A stretch of 61,378 nucleotides of DNA from positions 1 to 61,378 of the forward strand of contig CALBUI010000075.1 of assembly GCA_937968125.1 (NCBI GenBank), written 5' to 3'. Below are positions 27,084 to 33,922 of the stretch, piece by piece. Source of the stretch: an uncultured Anaerolineales bacterium. Lineage in GTDB: Bacteria; Chloroflexota; Anaerolineae; Anaerolineales; UBA4823. The position numbers were made by a program, and so were the translations under genes. Below the pieces are notes generated by a model. The model was not told where the DNA came from. It ran no database searches and worked only from the letters and a program-made list of their open reading frames with translations. Each line of letters opens with the position of its first letter. Position 1 is the first letter of the stretch.

Positions 27084-27240
27084 CTTCGGACAAAAAATCG
27101 GACATCAGAACCCAAGTGCCTGTCATTGCGAGCCGCAAGCGTTGTCCTTGCGGCGTGACAATCTCCCAGTGATGAGATTGCTTCGCAAAAAACGCTCGCA
27201 ATGACATCCAAAATAGGTTTGTCCGAACTCTTGTCCGAAC
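27084..27240. repeat. MITE/REP-like nested palindromic element
   Basis: Terminal inverted copies of TTGTCCGAA (left: cttcggacaa 27084-27093 and tcggaca 27099-27105; right: ttgtccgaac 27219-27228 and 27231-27240). The core palindrome is gtcattgcgagc (27122-27133) with gctcgcaatgac (27194-27205). Inner stems are cgcaag/cttgcg and caatctc/gagattg. It belongs to the widespread cattgcgag...ctcgcaatgac palindrome class. Confidence 0.45.
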
Positions 27241-27254
27241 TTGAGATTTTCTCC

Positions 27255-27298
27255 TTGACACAGAACAGATGTTCTGATATAAATAGAACATCTGTTCT
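27255..27298 (+). promoter_or_regulatory. Sigma-70-type promoter (TTGACA-17 nt-TATAAA) overlapped by two Cheo-type LexA boxes
   Basis: -35 TTGACA at 27255-27260 and -10 TATAAA at 27278-27283. AGAACAGATGTTCT (27262-27275) lies in the spacer. AGAACATCTGTTCT (27285-27298) lies over the expected transcription start site. Both fit GAAC-N4-GTTC perfectly. Confidence 0.6.
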
Positions 27299-27323
27299 TT
27301 ATCGTTACATCAAGGAGATCAAA

Positions 27324-28127
27324 ATGGTCACCAGTTTAATTCCCTCTGTTTGGCGAGAAACTCGAAGTCCAGTTGCTCCCGAGATTAATGTTCAACAATT
27401 TCCTCCCCAAGAAATAAGAAATTCAACACCAAGTATTTATTCTATTTACGAATCTTATGGACCTTTTCCAAATCAATCGTTAATGGTTGGAATTTGTGCC
27501 GATGGTTTTCCATTTATGCTGGATCTAAATAATTCGAGATCGGGTTCGGTTTTGGTTATTGGGGAAAATACTCATGAGAGATCCCAAATATTGAAGACAA
27601 TGTGCCTGTCAGCAAGCCTGATCAATAAACCTGAGCAAATCACCATTTTCGTGATCACAAATAAACCTCATCAATATGCAGATCTTTCAAAATATCCAAA
27701 CTGCCAGGCAATCATTTCTCCTTATGAAAGATCTTCCGGTGAATTGGTGATCGAATTAGCATCGATTGTTGAACAACGACGATCTGGAAGGGAGCGTGGG
27801 GGTTCATTGATGTTATTAATTGATGATTTCCAAAGCATTAATGCGATTTTGAACGACTTCAGCGTCTATTTGAACCTGAAATCAATGGTTAATACTGGAC
27901 CACAAAATGGTGTGTGGCCAATCATTTCCATACAACCGGATGACGTTCATTCCTCCAGGGGACAGTTATTACGCTCTTTTGGTACATATATCTTTGAAAA
28001 GGTTGACAACAATCAAGTCTTCCTCCCAGAAAATGGTGAAATGGATCCAAGTGATCTAGTTTATACACCCAATTTCAATGTCATTGTCGGTGGAAGATTA
28101 ACTCCAATCAGTAATTTGTTAGCTTAA
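27324..28127 (+). CDS. FtsK/SpoIIIE-like P-loop-fold protein with degenerate Walker A/B motifs
   Basis: ATG at 27324 with AAGGAG 6 nt upstream. It is colinear with the FtsK motor core: VGICADGFPFMLDL..GSVLVIGENTHERS (in place of GxxGSGKS), LMLLIDDF (in place of DE) and ISIQP (in place of ATQRP). Confidence 0.45.
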   Translation: MVTSLIPSVWRETRSPVAPEINVQQFPPQEIRNSTPSIYSIYESYGPFPNQSLMVGICADGFPFMLDLNNSRSGSVLVIGENTHERSQILKTMCLSASLINKPEQITIFVITNKPHQYADLSKYPNCQAIISPYERSSGELVIELASIVEQRRSGRERGGSLMLLIDDFQSINAILNDFSVYLNLKSMVNTGPQNGVWPIISIQPDDVHSSRGQLLRSFGTYIFEKVDNNQVFLPENGEMDPSDLVYTPNFNVIVGGRLTPISNLLA

Positions 28128-28148
28128 ATCGATTAAAAGGAACAATTT

Positions 28149-28409
28149 ATGAACGTCGGCATGTTGTGGTTCGATAATGACAATAAATCGGATTTACCAG
28201 CTAAGGTGAATCGCGCCGCGACTTATTATCATGGTAAATATGGGGTACATCCTAATCTTTGTTTCGTCCACCCGAGCATGGCAAATATTGCTAAGCCGGA
28301 TAAACCAGAGCCAAAATCAATAAAATCTGGCGATGTCGAAGTCAGGCTGACAAAATCCGTGCTTCCCCACCATTTTTGGATTGGAGTACATCAGCAGGAA
28401 ACCAATTAA
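28149..28409 (+). CDS. Small hypothetical protein, co-transcribed with the FtsK-like gene
   Basis: 86-aa ORF 21 nt after the upstream stop. No motif recognised. Confidence 0.45.
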   Translation: MNVGMLWFDNDNKSDLPAKVNRAATYYHGKYGVHPNLCFVHPSMANIAKPDKPEPKSIKSGDVEVRLTKSVLPHHFWIGVHQQETN

Positions 28410-28410
28410 G

Positions 28411-29409
28411 TCAATTGATTTCGGCGATCAAGAGGTCAACATTCAAATCACCGGGCATCACACCGGTTTTCAATTCTTTGTCGATTTCTAATAAGCGTCG
28501 ATAGATCCCTGCTAATTGGTTTAGAGTAAATTGACGCGCTTGTGAAGCGATCTTTCCGCTAACATAGGGATGGGTTTTTAATTTTTCAGTTATATCACCT
28601 TCTCTGCCATTTTGATCAATTATTTCCCTGGATAAGAGCAGCAATCTAAATTGCCGGACGATCATTCCAAAAACTCTCTGCGGGTCTTGATCCGCCAGCA
28701 GGCGATGATATTCAATAATTGCTTGCTTACGATTTCTGTTTCCTAAGGCATCAACAAAATCAAATATCGCTCCCTGTTGTCCGCCTTCTGTTAGCCGATC
28801 AACGTCTTCCTCATTAACTGGTCTGTCATAATTAACATACGTCAACAGTTTTGTGATTTCCTGGTCTGCCAGACGGACATCTTCTCCAATGAGCGCGGCC
28901 AGTCTACTCGCTGCTGGAGGCTCAACCTCGCCGCCTGCTTTTATGGCTCGGGAGAGTATCCAGCCTGTCATCTGTGGCCCTTTTGCTGAGTTGAACTCCT
29001 TGCTGTAGAATTTTTCCCCCAACGTTTGCCCCCATTTTTCTAGCCAATGTGTTTTTCCCCGATTTCTTTCCCTCATACTCAACAGGGGTTTGAATTCGGC
29101 GAGAACCACAGCATTCTCTTTTGGCAGATCTTCAAGAAATGCCAGTACCCTTTTGCGATTCGATTCGTCCTTCAGGTATGCCAGTGGATGATTGAGGATG
29201 GTCAACCGGCGTTCCGCCAGAAAAGGTAAGGATTTGCTTGATGTCTCGAATTCTTCTATCGAGAGCGAGCGACCATCCAACGAAGTCAGGTTCAAATCGA
29301 CCGAAGCTGGATCCCCTAATTTCGATTTGAGATTTTCAATCGCTTCACTAATAGCGAGTTCATCATCCCCATGAAACAGGTAAACAACCGGTTTCTGATC
29401 TGGTGCCAT
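28411..29409 (-). CDS. holA: DNA polymerase III delta subunit
   Basis: N-terminal VYLFHGDDELAISEAIENLKSKL and overall delta-subunit length and pattern. The ATG at 29409 is preferred over the TTG at 29412. Confidence 0.8.
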   Translation of the reverse strand: MAPDQKPVVYLFHGDDELAISEAIENLKSKLGDPASVDLNLTSLDGRSLSIEEFETSSKSLPFLAERRLTILNHPLAYLKDESNRKRVLAFLEDLPKENAVVLAEFKPLLSMRERNRGKTHWLEKWGQTLGEKFYSKEFNSAKGPQMTGWILSRAIKAGGEVEPPAASRLAALIGEDVRLADQEITKLLTYVNYDRPVNEEDVDRLTEGGQQGAIFDFVDALGNRNRKQAIIEYHRLLADQDPQRVFGMIVRQFRLLLLSREIIDQNGREGDITEKLKTHPYVSGKIASQARQFTLNQLAGIYRRLLEIDKELKTGVMPGDLNVDLLIAEIN

Positions 29410-29412
29410 CAA

Positions 29413-29958
29413 TTAATTCCTGGTTGTAACTCGGTGCGCCTTCATCCTCCCTTTCCGGCTAACCACAATCTCCACCACCTGCATGTTTCCCGGGTTGGCA
29501 GAGGTTGTCACCCGCTCCTGCAAGAAGAACCCTAATGGTTGGGAGAAGATCAAGGCGATAGTGGCTAAGAACATTGCCGCTGGCAGGCGCTCCAGTTTAT
29601 CTCGCATTCGGTTTCCAACACCGAACATGGCTACCACTGCTGCCAAACCCGCCAGGATGCCCGAAGTCACGAAGTTGGTCCCGCAATTGCGGTGGACTGC
29701 CAGGTGTTTTTCCCCGTTCTTTAGCCGGGAGAGCGCTTCCTCAACCGATTCATAAACATCCTCTATCGTCACATCTCCAATTATCCAGAATCCACCAGTA
29801 TCTGAGTGCCCTGCCAGGCTTTGTTTGGGATAACGCTGCGACAGGATGTGTAGTGTAGCGTGTTCCAGCCCGTGATTCCGCTGCACGCGAGAAATTACCG
29901 GAATGTCCCGCTTCTCTATTGCCTGCAAGTTCTTGCTTTCTACCATTTTATTCTCCAA
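29413..29958 (-). CDS. Conserved hypothetical membrane-associated protein
   Basis: RNHGLEHATLHIL and HRNCGTNF motifs plus two hydrophobic helices. It abuts holA with no spacer. Confidence 0.5.
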   Translation of the reverse strand: MENKMVESKNLQAIEKRDIPVISRVQRNHGLEHATLHILSQRYPKQSLAGHSDTGGFWIIGDVTIEDVYESVEEALSRLKNGEKHLAVHRNCGTNFVTSGILAGLAAVVAMFGVGNRMRDKLERLPAAMFLATIALIFSQPLGFFLQERVTTSANPGNMQVVEIVVSRKGRMKAHRVTTRN

Positions 29959-30155
29959 CTTACCAAAGGTAATCTAACCTGGCTATTATAACCCTCCCGT
30001 GCAAACCGATGTTATTTCGTCTGTGCAGAGATAGAACTCCCTGTTATCCAATTTTTGTCCGCGTTTTCTGTGATTAGTGGTGTCAAATTAATCAAGTACT
30101 TAAAACCCCCTCAAAAACTCTTGAATCAAATTTCAGTGTTTATTCGCATCCAATA

Positions 30156-30794
30156 TTAAGCTGGCCCGTTTGAGCGGCTGCCGCGCTGGTAAGCCTCATA
30201 GGTTTCAAGGAGAGTGATTTGGATGCGGTCAGTAAACCGGTAGATCTTGCGAAAGGTATCGCTCCACGCTTTGGGAGTTTGAATTGTTGATTCTTCATAC
30301 ACTGAGAGCATGGCATCCAACAGGACATTGCGGAAGAAGATGAATGCACGCGAGGCTTCCGCAGCCGTAAGTCCTCTTCGCCAACCCCTGGAGGCATATT
30401 CAAAACCCAGCGATCTGGCTTCTGAATCGTCGTAAGCACCGTCTGCAGCCAGGGATTCCAGCAGACCTTGCAGCAATGCCCGCCCGCTGCGGCGATATTG
30501 ATCGCGGGCTTCCTCATCCAATTTTCCGTACCAGCCTTCGTTTTCCAGGCTGCCTTCGCTGACCCTGACCCGGATGTTCTTTAATGCCGCCTGAACCACC
30601 AGGTGCCCTTCGTCCAGGCCTTCTTCCCGGTGAGTTTGAATCCACATCTCCACTTCGGTTCGCCGATAGCGCCGGTGGCCCCCTTGTGTGCGGTGAGCAG
30701 GCAGATGCCCCTGGTCTGACCAGCTGCGCACCGTGCTGGGGTGTACTCCCAGCATGCCTGCCACTTCACTTAAACTTAACCAATCTTCTGCCAT
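30156..30794 (-). CDS. MerR/excisionase-type helix-turn-helix regulator with a helical C-terminal domain
   Basis: LSLSEVAGMLGVHPSTVRSWSDQGHLPAHRTQGGHRRYRRTEVEMW. Confidence 0.6.
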   Translation of the reverse strand: MAEDWLSLSEVAGMLGVHPSTVRSWSDQGHLPAHRTQGGHRRYRRTEVEMWIQTHREEGLDEGHLVVQAALKNIRVRVSEGSLENEGWYGKLDEEARDQYRRSGRALLQGLLESLAADGAYDDSEARSLGFEYASRGWRRGLTAAEASRAFIFFRNVLLDAMLSVYEESTIQTPKAWSDTFRKIYRFTDRIQITLLETYEAYQRGSRSNGPA

Positions 30795-30854
30795 ATGCCC
30801 TCATATCCAATAAGAAAGTCGCTTTTTTCTACCAGTTCCCTTTTGCTGTACATG

Positions 30855-32162
30855 CTATACATCACTTGCCAGGGCTGCCCTTTCCATCACCGTTGTGGAT
30901 TCTGCCTCCCGCCGGAAAGCGGACACATCTATGCGTCGCAGGAAGATCAGAGAAATGAACAACAGCAGCGCCAGGATGCTGAAAACAGACACATAAGCAA
31001 GAACCGGGTTCTGCATAACTTGAGTCAGCACATCCCGCACCACGCCGCTCAACAGGGCACCGATCAACCGCGAAGCCGCGTTGGCCATCCCCCAGGCCCC
31101 AATGAACAGGCCTATTTTTGAAGCAGTGGTCATATCGAGCATCAAGGACAGGTTCGATACTGTTGATAATCCAGTACCGGTGCCGAGCAGGATCACGCCC
31201 GTGTAGAAAACGGTTGTGCTCATCAAGATGCCACTGGAAGCGATAAACACAAATCCAAACAAAGCAACCCCGCCGCCCCAAAAAGCGATCGTCCGCTTGC
31301 TTATCCTGCGTTCCAAAAATCCTGCTGCCAACAGAGCAACCAGCATGAATGCTCCCCAAATCGAGGTGATGCGTGTCGTTTCTTGAACAGCCATACCAAA
31401 CGCTTCACCCCCAAATGGTTCCAATAAGATGTCCTGCCCGAGCAGCGCGATCAGCAATATGATCAGGTAAACAAAAAAGGTTGTCGCCTGCTTATTTTCT
31501 AAAATCGAGTCGGCAAGCACCCGCCAGGTGTAGCGCTCCTCGCTCTCGACGCCGGCGGTGCTGGTTCGTTTCTCGAGTTTAATCAAACCCGTCATTCCCA
31601 GAACTAAAGCCACTATACCGACAATCCAGAAAGAACGCACCAGTGCTTCCGGCGAATATGGGGTCACCAGCCGGCTTATGAGCAGCGAAGTCGATATGAT
31701 CCCGATGATCATCATGAAGAACATCACTGATATAGTGCCACCGCGTTCCTTTTCGCTTGATAAATCGGTGGCCAAAGAAAAGTATGATACCGTGGCAAAG
31801 TTGAATCCCATCCCCCAGGCTCCAAATGCAATCAAACCAAACAGCAGCCCAATCCAAAAATTCTCCGCCAGCACAAAGGCCGCTAACGGCGAAAGGACCA
31901 CGCCCAGAACACAAAACAGCAGCCCAAGGGCGATATACGGCGTGCGATGCCAGCCCAAGACAGGATGCCGGTCAGAAAATGACCCGATAAAAACCTGGAT
32001 TGGAGAAAATAAATATGGCAGCGAGGCGAGTATAGCTACCAGGGTAGCCGAGAAGGCCAGCTCCTTGATCATGACTCGGTTCAAGGTGCTGTTGATCGGA
32101 ACCAGCGTCATTGCCACTGCCAGATGAATCAGTCCCAATTGAAGGCGTTTCAAGTACATCAC
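30855..32162 (-). CDS. MFS transporter, BCD/PucC family
   Basis: 12-TM profile and the N-terminal family pattern LGLIHLAVAMTLVPINSTLNRVMIKEL. Confidence 0.7.
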   Translation of the reverse strand: MMYLKRLQLGLIHLAVAMTLVPINSTLNRVMIKELAFSATLVAILASLPYLFSPIQVFIGSFSDRHPVLGWHRTPYIALGLLFCVLGVVLSPLAAFVLAENFWIGLLFGLIAFGAWGMGFNFATVSYFSLATDLSSEKERGGTISVMFFMMIIGIISTSLLISRLVTPYSPEALVRSFWIVGIVALVLGMTGLIKLEKRTSTAGVESEERYTWRVLADSILENKQATTFFVYLIILLIALLGQDILLEPFGGEAFGMAVQETTRITSIWGAFMLVALLAAGFLERRISKRTIAFWGGGVALFGFVFIASSGILMSTTVFYTGVILLGTGTGLSTVSNLSLMLDMTTASKIGLFIGAWGMANAASRLIGALLSGVVRDVLTQVMQNPVLAYVSVFSILALLLFISLIFLRRIDVSAFRREAESTTVMERAALASDV

Positions 32163-32375
32163 GATTTTTTATGCTCCAAGAATCTCGCTCCAGCTGCAAG
32201 AATTACCGCGTCACACACTTATAGCGCGGGCGGATATTAATCATCAATCCGACCAGATAAATTTAACAGATTAATTCGCCTCCCGTCAATGTAGGTTTAT
32301 ATAGATTTTTGGGTAATATTTATGAAGATTTCTTAAGGTTTTAGATATTACAGAAGCGATCTTCACTTAGCTGGG

Positions 32376-33773
32376 TCAGTCTTTCAATAATGCCTGATCC
32401 AGCGCCTTGCGCAGCGAACGCGCTTCGATCACTTCGATCTCACTCGGCCAGGGTTCGCTTCGTCGCAGCCGACCTGGCACGATAGCAGTTTTAAATCCCA
32501 GGTTTGCTGCTTCTCGCAAACGTGTCGGCATCTGGCCCACTGAGCGCAGCTCCCCGGAAAGACCGATTTCGCCGACCAACACTGTCTCCGCCCGTACTGG
32601 TATGTCCCGGGTAGACGAGGCAATCGTGGCCGCAATCGCCAGGTCCGCAGCCGGTTCGCTGACTTTTAAACCACCCACCACATTGACAAAGACATCCTGC
32701 TCGGATAAGCGCAGCCCAATCCGCCGGGTTAGCACAGCCACGATCAAAAGCAGCCGGTTGAAATCTACGCCGTTTGGGGTGCGGCGTGGGTTGCCAAAGG
32801 AGGTTGAGCTGGTCAGGCCTTGAATTTCGACCAGCAGCGGCCGGGTGCCTTCCATGGTGACTGCAATCGCTGAGCCAGGTGCGTTGACCAGGCGTCCCGC
32901 CAGGAAGGATTCCGACGGATTGGAGACTTCGATCATGCCCCGTTCCTGCATCTCGAATACGCCCACCTCCGAGGTGGCTCCAAAGCGGTTCTTCACCGAG
33001 CGCAGCAGCCGGTAGGATTGGAATCGATCGCCCTCCAGGTAGAGCACTGTATCCACGATATGCTCCAGGACACGCGGGCCGGCGATGGTACCTTCTTTGG
33101 TGACATGCCCGATTAGCAAAACAGATATCCCCGCCGATTTTGCCAGTTCACGCAGTCGGGAAGCGCTCTCCCGCACCTGGGAGACAGACCCCGCTGAAGA
33201 CTCTAACTCGGGCAAGGTCGTGGTTTGGATCGAATCCACTATCAAGAGCCGGGGCTTCACCTGCGAGACATGCCCCAAAATGACCTCCATGTTCGTTTCG
33301 GTAACCAGCAGCAGATCATCCGGCAGATCCGGGCCATCGCCATCTGTCCCTTTACGCAGACGGAGGGCTCGCATCTTGATCTGACGCTCCGACTCTTCCC
33401 CGGAAACATAAAGAACCCGATCCCTACGCGCCATTTCCAACGCCGTTTGCAGCAACAGCGTGCTCTTTCCGATTCCTGGATCGCCCCCAATGAGCACGAT
33501 CGAGCCCGGCACAATACCTCCCCCCAGCACCCGGGCAAATTCTTGAATTGGGAGCAGCATGCGCTCATCTGCCCCTTCTCCAATTTCGGAGAGCCGCTGC
33601 GGGGTAGAATCTCCACCCAGGCCCTGAATCCTGGAGGCTCCCTTTTTGCTCGTCTGCGCGATCACTTCCTCTACCATGCTGTTCCAGGAATTACACTGCG
33701 GGCAGCGCCCCATATCTTTGGCTGATACTCGCCCGCACTGCTGGCAGACAAATTGAGTTCGCAACTTCGGCAT
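32376..33773 (-). CDS. radA: DNA repair protein RadA/Sms
   Basis: Zinc finger FVCQQCG...CPQCNSWNS, Walker A GGDPGIGKST, KNRFG motif and a Lon-like C-terminal domain. The start is at MPKLRTQF (ATG at 33773). Confidence 0.9.
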   Translation of the reverse strand: MPKLRTQFVCQQCGRVSAKDMGRCPQCNSWNSMVEEVIAQTSKKGASRIQGLGGDSTPQRLSEIGEGADERMLLPIQEFARVLGGGIVPGSIVLIGGDPGIGKSTLLLQTALEMARRDRVLYVSGEESERQIKMRALRLRKGTDGDGPDLPDDLLLVTETNMEVILGHVSQVKPRLLIVDSIQTTTLPELESSAGSVSQVRESASRLRELAKSAGISVLLIGHVTKEGTIAGPRVLEHIVDTVLYLEGDRFQSYRLLRSVKNRFGATSEVGVFEMQERGMIEVSNPSESFLAGRLVNAPGSAIAVTMEGTRPLLVEIQGLTSSTSFGNPRRTPNGVDFNRLLLIVAVLTRRIGLRLSEQDVFVNVVGGLKVSEPAADLAIAATIASSTRDIPVRAETVLVGEIGLSGELRSVGQMPTRLREAANLGFKTAIVPGRLRRSEPWPSEIEVIEARSLRKALDQALLKD

Positions 33774-33922
33774 AATCAAATTATAACTTAGTGGCGTGTC
33801 CCTAGACAATTTTCCGGAGTTTAGAGCTTGTCCCGCATTGAGGGGGCTTTGTGCCCGGTTCTGGATCAAAAAGAGCACAAGCGTTTGCCTGTGCCCTTTG
33901 AGTGTTAAATATCTTTACGTTA

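Follow-up and report, generated by a model that had tools for sequence, protein, structure and literature searches.

Does a small two-gene operon in an uncultured sediment bacterium of the Anaerolineales belong to the DNA damage (SOS) response, and if so, on what would its products act? The operon lies in a stretch of 61,378 nucleotides (nt) of contig CALBUI010000075.1 (assembly GCA_937968125.1; called the window here) and consists of gene A, which encodes a 267-amino-acid (aa) relative of the FtsK motor, and gene B, which encodes an 86-aa partner; its promoter carries two palindromes of the form GAAC-N4-GTTC. An earlier inspection of the DNA without database searches (the sequence-only reading) had taken these palindromes for LexA operators and gene A for a catalytically degenerate FtsK mimic induced by DNA damage. 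To our knowledge, the SOS regulon of the Anaerolineae, which are abundant, mostly uncultured bacteria of sediment and sludge, has not been described, and we know of no SOS division inhibitor in the Chloroflexota. Having compared the promoter, both proteins, and their neighborhood with those of relatives, we favor with moderate confidence the interpretation that A-B is a LexA-repressed SOS operon of the Anaerolineales that would modulate FtsK-type translocation, segregation, or division.

Perfect GAAC-N4-GTTC sites, of which 0.9 would be expected by chance, occur just twice in the window, as the two boxes of the A-B promoter (Table 1). They are separated by 9 nt; the chance expectation of a pair within 40 nt is approximately 6e-4. 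Both fit the longer form AGAAC-N4-GTTCT, and operator 2, which begins 2 nt past the −10 hexamer, is the reverse complement of operator 1. The 3′ end of operator 1 and the next base together create the extended −10 element TGn (GTTCTGA-TATAAA), a feature kept in orthologues. No further regulon members were found in the window, where sites with up to two mismatches numbered 24 compared to 23 expected by chance.

We then asked of the alignments which parts of this promoter are conserved. Across the 90 nt upstream of gene A in nine distinct orthologous loci, CTTGACA, AGAAC, GTTCT, TATA, TAGAAC, GTTC, and the start codon were invariant, while the N4 centers and the DNA upstream of the −35 hexamer varied; this layout is conserved down to approximately 27% protein identity. 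The −10 hexamer reads TATAAA, TATATT, or TATAAT at equal distance, and the Shine-Dalgarno motif GGAG is kept in eight of the nine promoters (in L013 it is GGAGC and is shifted in the alignment). Both boxes are retained in L013, a rearranged and distant locus whose gene A product, at 27% identity, still carries an undamaged Walker A motif. Box 2 was found in all 11 distinct A-B loci examined, the most distant (L012 and L142) included; in these two, only the box directly after the −10 hexamer remains, and the gene A relative of L142 is 426 aa long. Other perfect sites were absent from most of the 6- to 13-kb orthologous loci scanned, with one in L142 approximately 4 kb downstream of the operon. 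Because neither the half-sites nor their positions change although the sequence around them does, the dyads behave as real operators, and we regard a functional role for both as very probable.

Evidence on the identity of the repressor comes from other loci with the same operator design. In Firmicutes and Actinobacteria, the LexA motif has been summarized as GAAC-N4-GTTC (PMC3323433). When metagenome contigs were scanned for paired AGAAC-N4-GTTCT sites with other spacings, 120 loci were recovered, and lexA adjoined the box pair in 14 of them. The lexA promoters of L036, L065, and L042 consist of TTGACA, box, TATAAT, and box, which is the design of the A-B promoter, and the LexA protein of L036 is 81 to 84% identical to NCBI entries named “repressor LexA [Anaerolineales/Anaerolineae bacterium].” A Pfam census of 141 open reading frames (ORFs) flanking box pairs included 11 LexA/S24 proteins, 5 Y-family polymerases, 4 FtsK-like proteins, and 3 LysM proteins. 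The placement of operator 1 within the promoter spacer likewise recurs at Anaerolineales lexA1, lexA2, EAD7, and FtsK-like genes, and the 14-mers themselves are shared with lexA1, lexA2, and genes adjacent to them in Anaerolineales MAGs and metagenome contigs. The proposal that GAAC-N4-GTTC serves as a LexA operator here, previously a matter of motif resemblance, has thus gained comparative support, since the same design precedes Anaerolineales lexA genes.

Two loci from metagenome-assembled genomes (MAGs) of Anaerolineales, L135 and L139, hold two tandem lexA paralogues with similar recognition helices. LexA1 has the canonical cleavage site (GRIAAGEP); LexA2 usually lacks the Ala-Gly pair, although its Ser and Lys residues are retained. 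The two lexA genes flank a small stand-alone EAD7 gene (PF19960; effector-associated, death-like adaptor) with its own TTGACA-box-TATAAT promoter. In both loci, lexA1 and the EAD7 gene have one spacer box each and lexA2 has two boxes. A conflict-system adaptor domain therefore appears, on the strength of its promoter, to be under predicted LexA control.

Several observations weigh against LexA control of A-B. One lies in the promoter itself: of the near-consensus promoter with two perfect palindromes described in the sequence-only reading, the layout, coordinates, and spacing stand, but the −10 hexamer TATAAA lacks a T at position 6, and a consensus promoter scanner calls no promoter. Another is that the boxes form a covarying 14-bp hairpin (ΔG of −23.4 kcal/mol; z = −5.65), which scored as terminator-like and has a T-rich tail after it. 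The covariation concerns the central N4, which changes jointly in the two operators of orthologues (AGAT/ATCT, ACAT/ATGT, AAGT/ACTT); among 163 unique box pairs from all loci, 27 were perfect reverse complements and 38 were identical (approximately 0.6 expected for each). Conversion, selection for equal affinity, or hairpin function could account for this pattern. The dyads might be mainly a DNA or RNA hairpin, such as a terminator of the upstream rumA-type gene, or be bound by a non-LexA repressor of the TetR or MerR type, with no SOS control in either case. A terminator, however, has no need of boxes that are each a dyad with invariant half-sites; no hairpin is possible in L012 and L142, where box 2 stands alone; and paired boxes elsewhere are as often direct as inverted copies.

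TetR regulators were the commonest neighbors of box pairs in the census (22 of the 141 ORFs), and the dyad is not exclusive to LexA. The TetR/alpha-beta-hydrolase divergons marked by paired AGAAC-N4-GTTCT sites (22 TetR_N and 14 hydrolase ORFs of the 141; L015-L134) are an unrelated regulon using a look-alike operator. Because TetR regulators also flank such pairs, the dyad alone is no proof of LexA. A MerR gene lies 2 kb from the operon and is syntenic in close orthologues. The proposed LexA assignment also leans on order-level relatives and not on the window genome's own lexA: neither lexA nor recA was found in the window or in the first orthologous loci searched, and no contig was common to the match lists of A, B, and LexA. 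A search of the literature available to us returned nothing specific to LexA in Chloroflexi or Anaerolineae. Finally, if LexA2 were the main repressor at this operon, induction might bypass the classical RecA route. Nevertheless, LexA is favored here because lexA itself has the identical design, none of the A-B loci has a TetR gene nearby, and the box persists in the rearranged loci L012, L013, and L142, where MerR is absent; the neighboring MerR was rejected as the regulator on this last ground. On this comparative evidence, we judge LexA to be the likely repressor, with LexA occupancy and induction by damage likely to follow, and control by another repressor or by a hairpin to be improbable.

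What, then, would such an operon deliver? The 77 close relatives of gene A, with approximately 267 aa, each come from an Anaerolineales or Chloroflexota metagenome. The Pfam FtsK_SpoIIIE profile (PF01580) matched it below threshold (E = 1e-3; 18.9 bits versus a cutoff of 24), and some orthologues with an intact P-loop exceed that threshold. The gene A family profile matched the EccC structure 4nh0 (E = 3e-13). The AlphaFold2 (AF2) model of the protein (pLDDT 75.7; pTM 0.76; residues 1 to 32 disordered) found EccCb1-D2, EccC D2/D3, and EssC D3 as its best Foldseek matches, followed by the FtsK motor and TcpA, with E values of 4e-10 to 1e-8 and TM scores of 0.57 to 0.65 against EccC, EssC, and FtsK motor domains. 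The FtsK/HerA fold that had been read from the sequence was thereby confirmed by structure search and by the EccC profile match. No match to an FtsK_alpha or gamma domain was obtained, and the model contains no predicted transmembrane helix. We conclude that the gene A product consists of a beta domain only and resembles EccC/EssC D2-D3 more closely than it does the complete FtsK motor.

The catalytic motifs of this domain are degraded. The Walker A position reads GENTHERS (residues 80 to 87), compared to GETGSGKT in relatives; the Walker B position reads LLIDDF (residues 164 to 169), with DD and not DE; and ISIQPDD (residues 201 to 207) stands where FtsK has ATQRP. Among 78 relatives, 15 keep GxxxxGKT and most keep the Lys alone, while the subclade of the window lacks even the Lys; the Walker B form hhhhDD occurs in almost all of them. 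In addition, the motifs EQRRxGRERG, FGTYIFEK, and GGRLxPI are invariant or nearly so in the family. Judged from these alignments, the presumptive loss of nucleotide binding is progressive and lineage specific. Since the GENTHERS lineage has no P-loop, gene A is predicted to be unable to bind or hydrolyze ATP in the canonical manner, and we hold with high confidence that it encodes an FtsK/EccC-fold protein with a dead P-loop (a pseudo-ATPase). The catalytically degenerate FtsK mimic of the sequence-only reading is upheld as far as the destroyed Walker A and the DD of Walker B are concerned, but the family as a whole is not ancestrally inactive. To the contrary evidence listed above must be added that relatives with an intact Walker A motif imply that nucleotide binding is not universally dispensable.

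At the N terminus of the gene A product, a short segment (M1...P7..W10 within residues 1 to 12) is nearly invariant and is followed by a disordered linker of approximately 25 residues. The P7/W10 motif may be a docking peptide.

Gene B follows gene A at a distance of 21 nt in the window and of 13 to 24 nt, or with overlap, in every locus examined. It has 550 homologues, and 27 of its 86 columns are invariant, including positions in GMLWFDND (D9/D11), K19, R22, YY, KYG, C38, H41-P42, E64, and H75-x-WIG. A profile search gathered 1835 clusters at 50% identity, all of them small stand-alone proteins. Where gene A is only 25 to 27% identical, gene B is 60% identical; by this measure B is the more constrained and much slower-evolving partner. 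The AF2 model (pLDDT 82.4) is alpha/beta and had no significant fold match in PDB or BFVD. No family was assigned by Pfam, NCBIfam, PHROG, or PADLOC, and there was no PDB sequence match; we dismissed as noise some weak matches to the HK97 capsid and to phage entries (E > 0.02).

A clue to what A-B may be related to came from a paralogous gene cluster at Anaerolineales MAG lexA loci, with the order lexA2, FtsK-like ATPase, membrane protein, and p82. The ATPase (390 aa) is soluble, has an alpha+beta architecture, and retains intact GTTGSGKT and FIDEVADL motifs; the membrane protein (120 to 134 aa) follows it; and p82 (82 aa), at the cluster end, is a paralogue of B (33% identity; E = 2e-18). In some contigs, an optional Cys-rich protein of approximately 150 to 200 aa precedes the ATPase. 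The gene A family aligned to the 390-aa ATPase with an hhalign probability of 96.9%. In L080, L112, and L090, the FtsK-like gene stands directly behind a TTGACA-box-TATAAT-box promoter, and in L115 and L017, placed by coordinates only, it is immediately preceded by a paired-box site. There are therefore two architectures in which an FtsK-fold protein is combined with a B-type protein, each with a link to predicted LexA operators. B is a constant partner of FtsK-type ATPases in the Anaerolineales, and A-B looks like a reduced, noncatalytic sibling of the SOS-linked FtsK-like module. L078 seemingly lacks the ATPase gene; its B-like gene comes after a Cys-rich ORF and one for a membrane protein, and the locus also contains a second B-like ORF, which is truncated.

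From these observations a mechanism can be outlined. Two LexA dimers, on operator 1 in the spacer and operator 2 at the start site, would jointly occlude RNA polymerase; DNA damage would, through RecA-stimulated LexA cleavage, derepress A-B; and the induced A would act as a scaffold or adaptor together with B. Instead of pumping DNA itself, A would engage an FtsK-like motor or its partners, and A-B would in this way modulate DNA translocation, chromosome segregation, or division during repair. That A-B acts on an FtsK-type translocation or division pathway is, taken alone, a tentative proposal. A more specific version, in which the pseudo-FtsK and B form an SOS checkpoint effector that would hold translocation or septum closure until repair ends, via an FtsK-like translocase, the divisome, or a shared B-type partner, is unlikely, although an FtsK-poison or division-block mechanism is plausible and gains some indirect support from the paralogous LexA-linked cluster with its intact FtsK-like ATPase and B paralogue.

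Alternatively, LexA control might be just as described, with A-B serving as an FtsK-independent repair or damage-tolerance factor, in which A, with its RecA fold, would form a ring or scaffold that binds DNA or protein, and B would be the catalytic part, either a small enzyme or a factor that binds metal, with damaged DNA or stalled complexes as its target. This would suit the constraint on B, with its enzyme-like invariant polar residues (D9/D11, C38, H41, E64, and H75), as well as the great size of a B family composed of stand-alone small proteins. The neighbors include the replication and repair genes holA and radA, and A-B and the FtsK-like module were each observed on separate contigs. 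However, in most of the loci examined, B-type genes accompany an FtsK-fold ATPase, whether A-type or the 390-aa alpha+beta form (L078 being the exception), and the searches with B revealed no fold of a nuclease, glycosylase, or other repair protein. We therefore view FtsK-independent action as rather doubtful and retain the LexA-repressed, FtsK-directed operon as the preferred interpretation.

The surroundings of the operon bear on a further possibility, that A-B is an SOS-triggered toxin/antitoxin-like or antiphage module or a remnant of a prophage or mobile element. The composition of the operon appears at first to suit it. As the sequence-only reading had stated, A-B is more A+T rich than its neighbors (GC content of 38.6% for gene A and 43.3% for gene B versus 50.5% for the whole window). 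Comparison with L001, L004, L007, L008, L011, L013, and L142 showed that low gene A GC (0.386) is confined to the subclade of the window (0.411 in L004), where P-loop decay is also most advanced; the remaining gene A orthologues have a GC content near that of their own locus, and gene B is slightly GC poor in all. Low GC was consequently rejected as a sign of horizontal transfer, being limited to a single subclade while synteny is kept to 44% identity. At that level of identity, the order aminotransferase, rumA, A, B, holA, DUF6391, MerR, MFS, radA, clpB is unchanged, and for this reason A-B belongs to the core chromosome and not to an island. The convergent arrangement of A-B and holA recurs in orthologues (with an 8-nt overlap in L001). 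The orthologous neighborhood contained neither an integrase gene nor any other gene of phage type, and searches of 50,697 phage records and 72,556 plasmid records gave no match to A-B.

A miniature inverted-repeat transposable element (MITE)-like sequence directly upstream and an operon end 1 nt from the convergent holA stop codon had both been noted before and are both present; no separate terminator exists between B and holA. Terminal inverted repeats of 20 nt (85%) bound the MITE-like element, and inside them lies a perfect inverted repeat of 13 nt, GTCATTGCGAGC. It is single copy in the window and absent from all orthologous loci, in which the intergenic region is approximately 80 nt; in contigs from sediment it has a higher depth and occurs in several contexts, with unrelated sequence on both sides. 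Because the element inserted without disturbing the promoter, the promoter is self-contained and the element lies outside the operon. A defensive or mobile role could further invoke the two-gene cassette form, the occurrence of FtsK/HerA-like ATPases in defense systems, weak PADLOC similarities to SspH and HerA, and the LexA-boxed EAD7 gene at the lexA locus. Against it, neither A nor B was significant in PADLOC or PHROG (the best match of A was the tail of SspH; E = 2e-3). Given the synteny and the lack of phage and plasmid matches, a mobile-element origin of A-B was rejected, and we consider a defense module or mobile remnant of any kind very improbable.

Marine-sediment contigs labeled as RNA sequencing (RNA-seq) cover both genes at 100% identity, although the RNA status of three of these runs is only guessed and DNA carry-over is possible. 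One such contig starts at position 27310, downstream of operator 2 and 60 nt past the repeat, and is no more than suggestive as regards the transcription start; another crosses the A/B junction and stops at the B stop codon. These contigs are consistent with transcription of A-B in sediment as a single unit.

Table 1. Coordinates of the features discussed (positions in the window unless a metagenome locus is named)
Feature	Position	Strand	Basis or remark
−35 hexamer TTGACA	27255..27260	+	Read in sequence
Operator 1 (box 1), AGAACAGATGTTCT	27262..27275	+	Inside the 17-nt −35/−10 spacer
−10 hexamer TATAAA	27278..27283	+	Preceded by TGA (extended −10)
Operator 2 (box 2), AGAACATCTGTTCT	27285..27298	+	Covers the expected transcription start, near 27290
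Shine-Dalgarno AAGGAG of gene A	27312..27317	+	Read in sequence
Gene A, 267 aa, stand-alone FtsK/EccC-type RecA-fold domain	27324..28127	+	Profile, structure, and motif comparison
N-terminal segment of gene A (residues 1-12)	27324-27360		
Walker A position of gene A	27561-27584		
Walker B position of gene A	27813-27830		
Gene B, 86 aa, small alpha/beta protein, uncharacterized family	28149..28409	+	Directly downstream of A
holA (DNA polymerase III delta), convergent	28411..29412	−	Pfam DNA_pol3_delta, DNA_pol3_delta_C; stop codon begins at 28411
Downstream block: DUF6391 (adjoins holA), MerR/RsbRD_N regulator, MFS transporter, radA	29413-33878		None with a LexA-type box
MITE-like element (155 bp)	27085..27239	.	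Between rumA-type methyltransferase stop codon and promoter
LexA-linked FtsK-like cluster (B-like member 79-82 aa)	L135:4861-6978; L112:1790-3947; L080; L090; L042; L035; L078:2472-3691		
Tandem lexA paralogues	L135:2496-4603; L139:2149-4609		Anaerolineales MAGs
EAD7 gene	L135:3412-3855; L139:3410-3859		Between the lexA genes

Taken together, these loci provide a concrete operator design and a set of candidate regulon members, namely two lexA paralogues, the EAD7 gene, the FtsK-like cluster, and A-B. They also connect the previously unannotated B family, whose clusters at 50% identity exceed 1800 in number, with FtsK-type ATPases and LexA-type operators; if the checkpoint version judged unlikely above were true, this family would be an unrecognized accessory subunit of SOS-linked FtsK-type motors. 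The operon would then also represent a new way to build a damage checkpoint, as a dead-motor analogue of SulA, YneA, and SidA. Gradual decay of the P-loop is visible among living relatives of gene A, and should the pseudo-ATPase regulate a translocase or division, it would offer a natural case of a motor family spawning a dead regulatory paralogue.

How A-B compares with known systems depends on the part considered. Its operators share with the Gram-positive Cheo box of autoregulated lexA/dinR and other SOS promoters the half-sites, the overlap with spacer and start site, and the use of multiple boxes per promoter. They differ in their flanks (AGAAC-N4-GTTCT versus CGAAC...GTTCG), in that box 1 doubles as the extended −10 TG, and in being inverted copies with covarying centers, and the genes that they precede lie outside any described SOS regulon. 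The LexA of Dehalococcoides reportedly binds GAAC-N4-GTTC, in work attributed to Fernandez de Henestrosa et al. in 2002.

For gene A, the best sequence and structure matches are the D2 and D3 domains of the type VII secretion system (T7SS) ATPases EccC and EssC, which are likewise single beta-type FtsK domains of approximately 260 aa. In these domains, catalysis is reduced or absent; they have a regulatory or substrate-binding function and bind a small protein partner. In contrast, A is stand-alone and not part of a multidomain membrane ATPase, no other T7SS genes are present (the neighbors are rumA and holA), and B is alpha/beta and not a WXG100 helical hairpin. Membership in a T7SS was rejected on this gene context and on the NCBIfam EccCb score of gene A (27 bits versus a cutoff of 347).

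The SOS division inhibitors SulA, YneA, SidA/DidA, and ChiZ are small, LexA-controlled effectors made upon DNA damage, and the sequence-only reading had suggested a comparable checkpoint role for A-B, but A-B has no sequence or fold relation to them and no membrane or LysM segment. The system described in the paper cited as reference 18 of PMC9380542 resembles the Anaerolineales lexA loci in combining an FtsK-like ATPase with a small membrane partner; it is not reported to be LexA regulated or to include a B-type protein, and A-B differs from it in having no membrane component. In E. coli, ftsK is SOS induced from the dinH promoter and thus offers an FtsK-family gene under LexA control that links damage to segregation and division (PMC4080785). 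E. coli FtsK, however, is an active translocase of 147 kDa that is anchored in the membrane and comprises alpha, beta, and gamma domains, whereas the gene A product is soluble, has 267 aa and no P-loop, and comes with a dedicated small partner; E. coli ftsK is better compared with the gene for the 390-aa FtsK-like protein found at lexA loci of Anaerolineales. SOS operons and proteins of the FtsK family are known in kind, and what is new is the uncharacterized partner family and an Anaerolineales SOS gene set that has now become visible.

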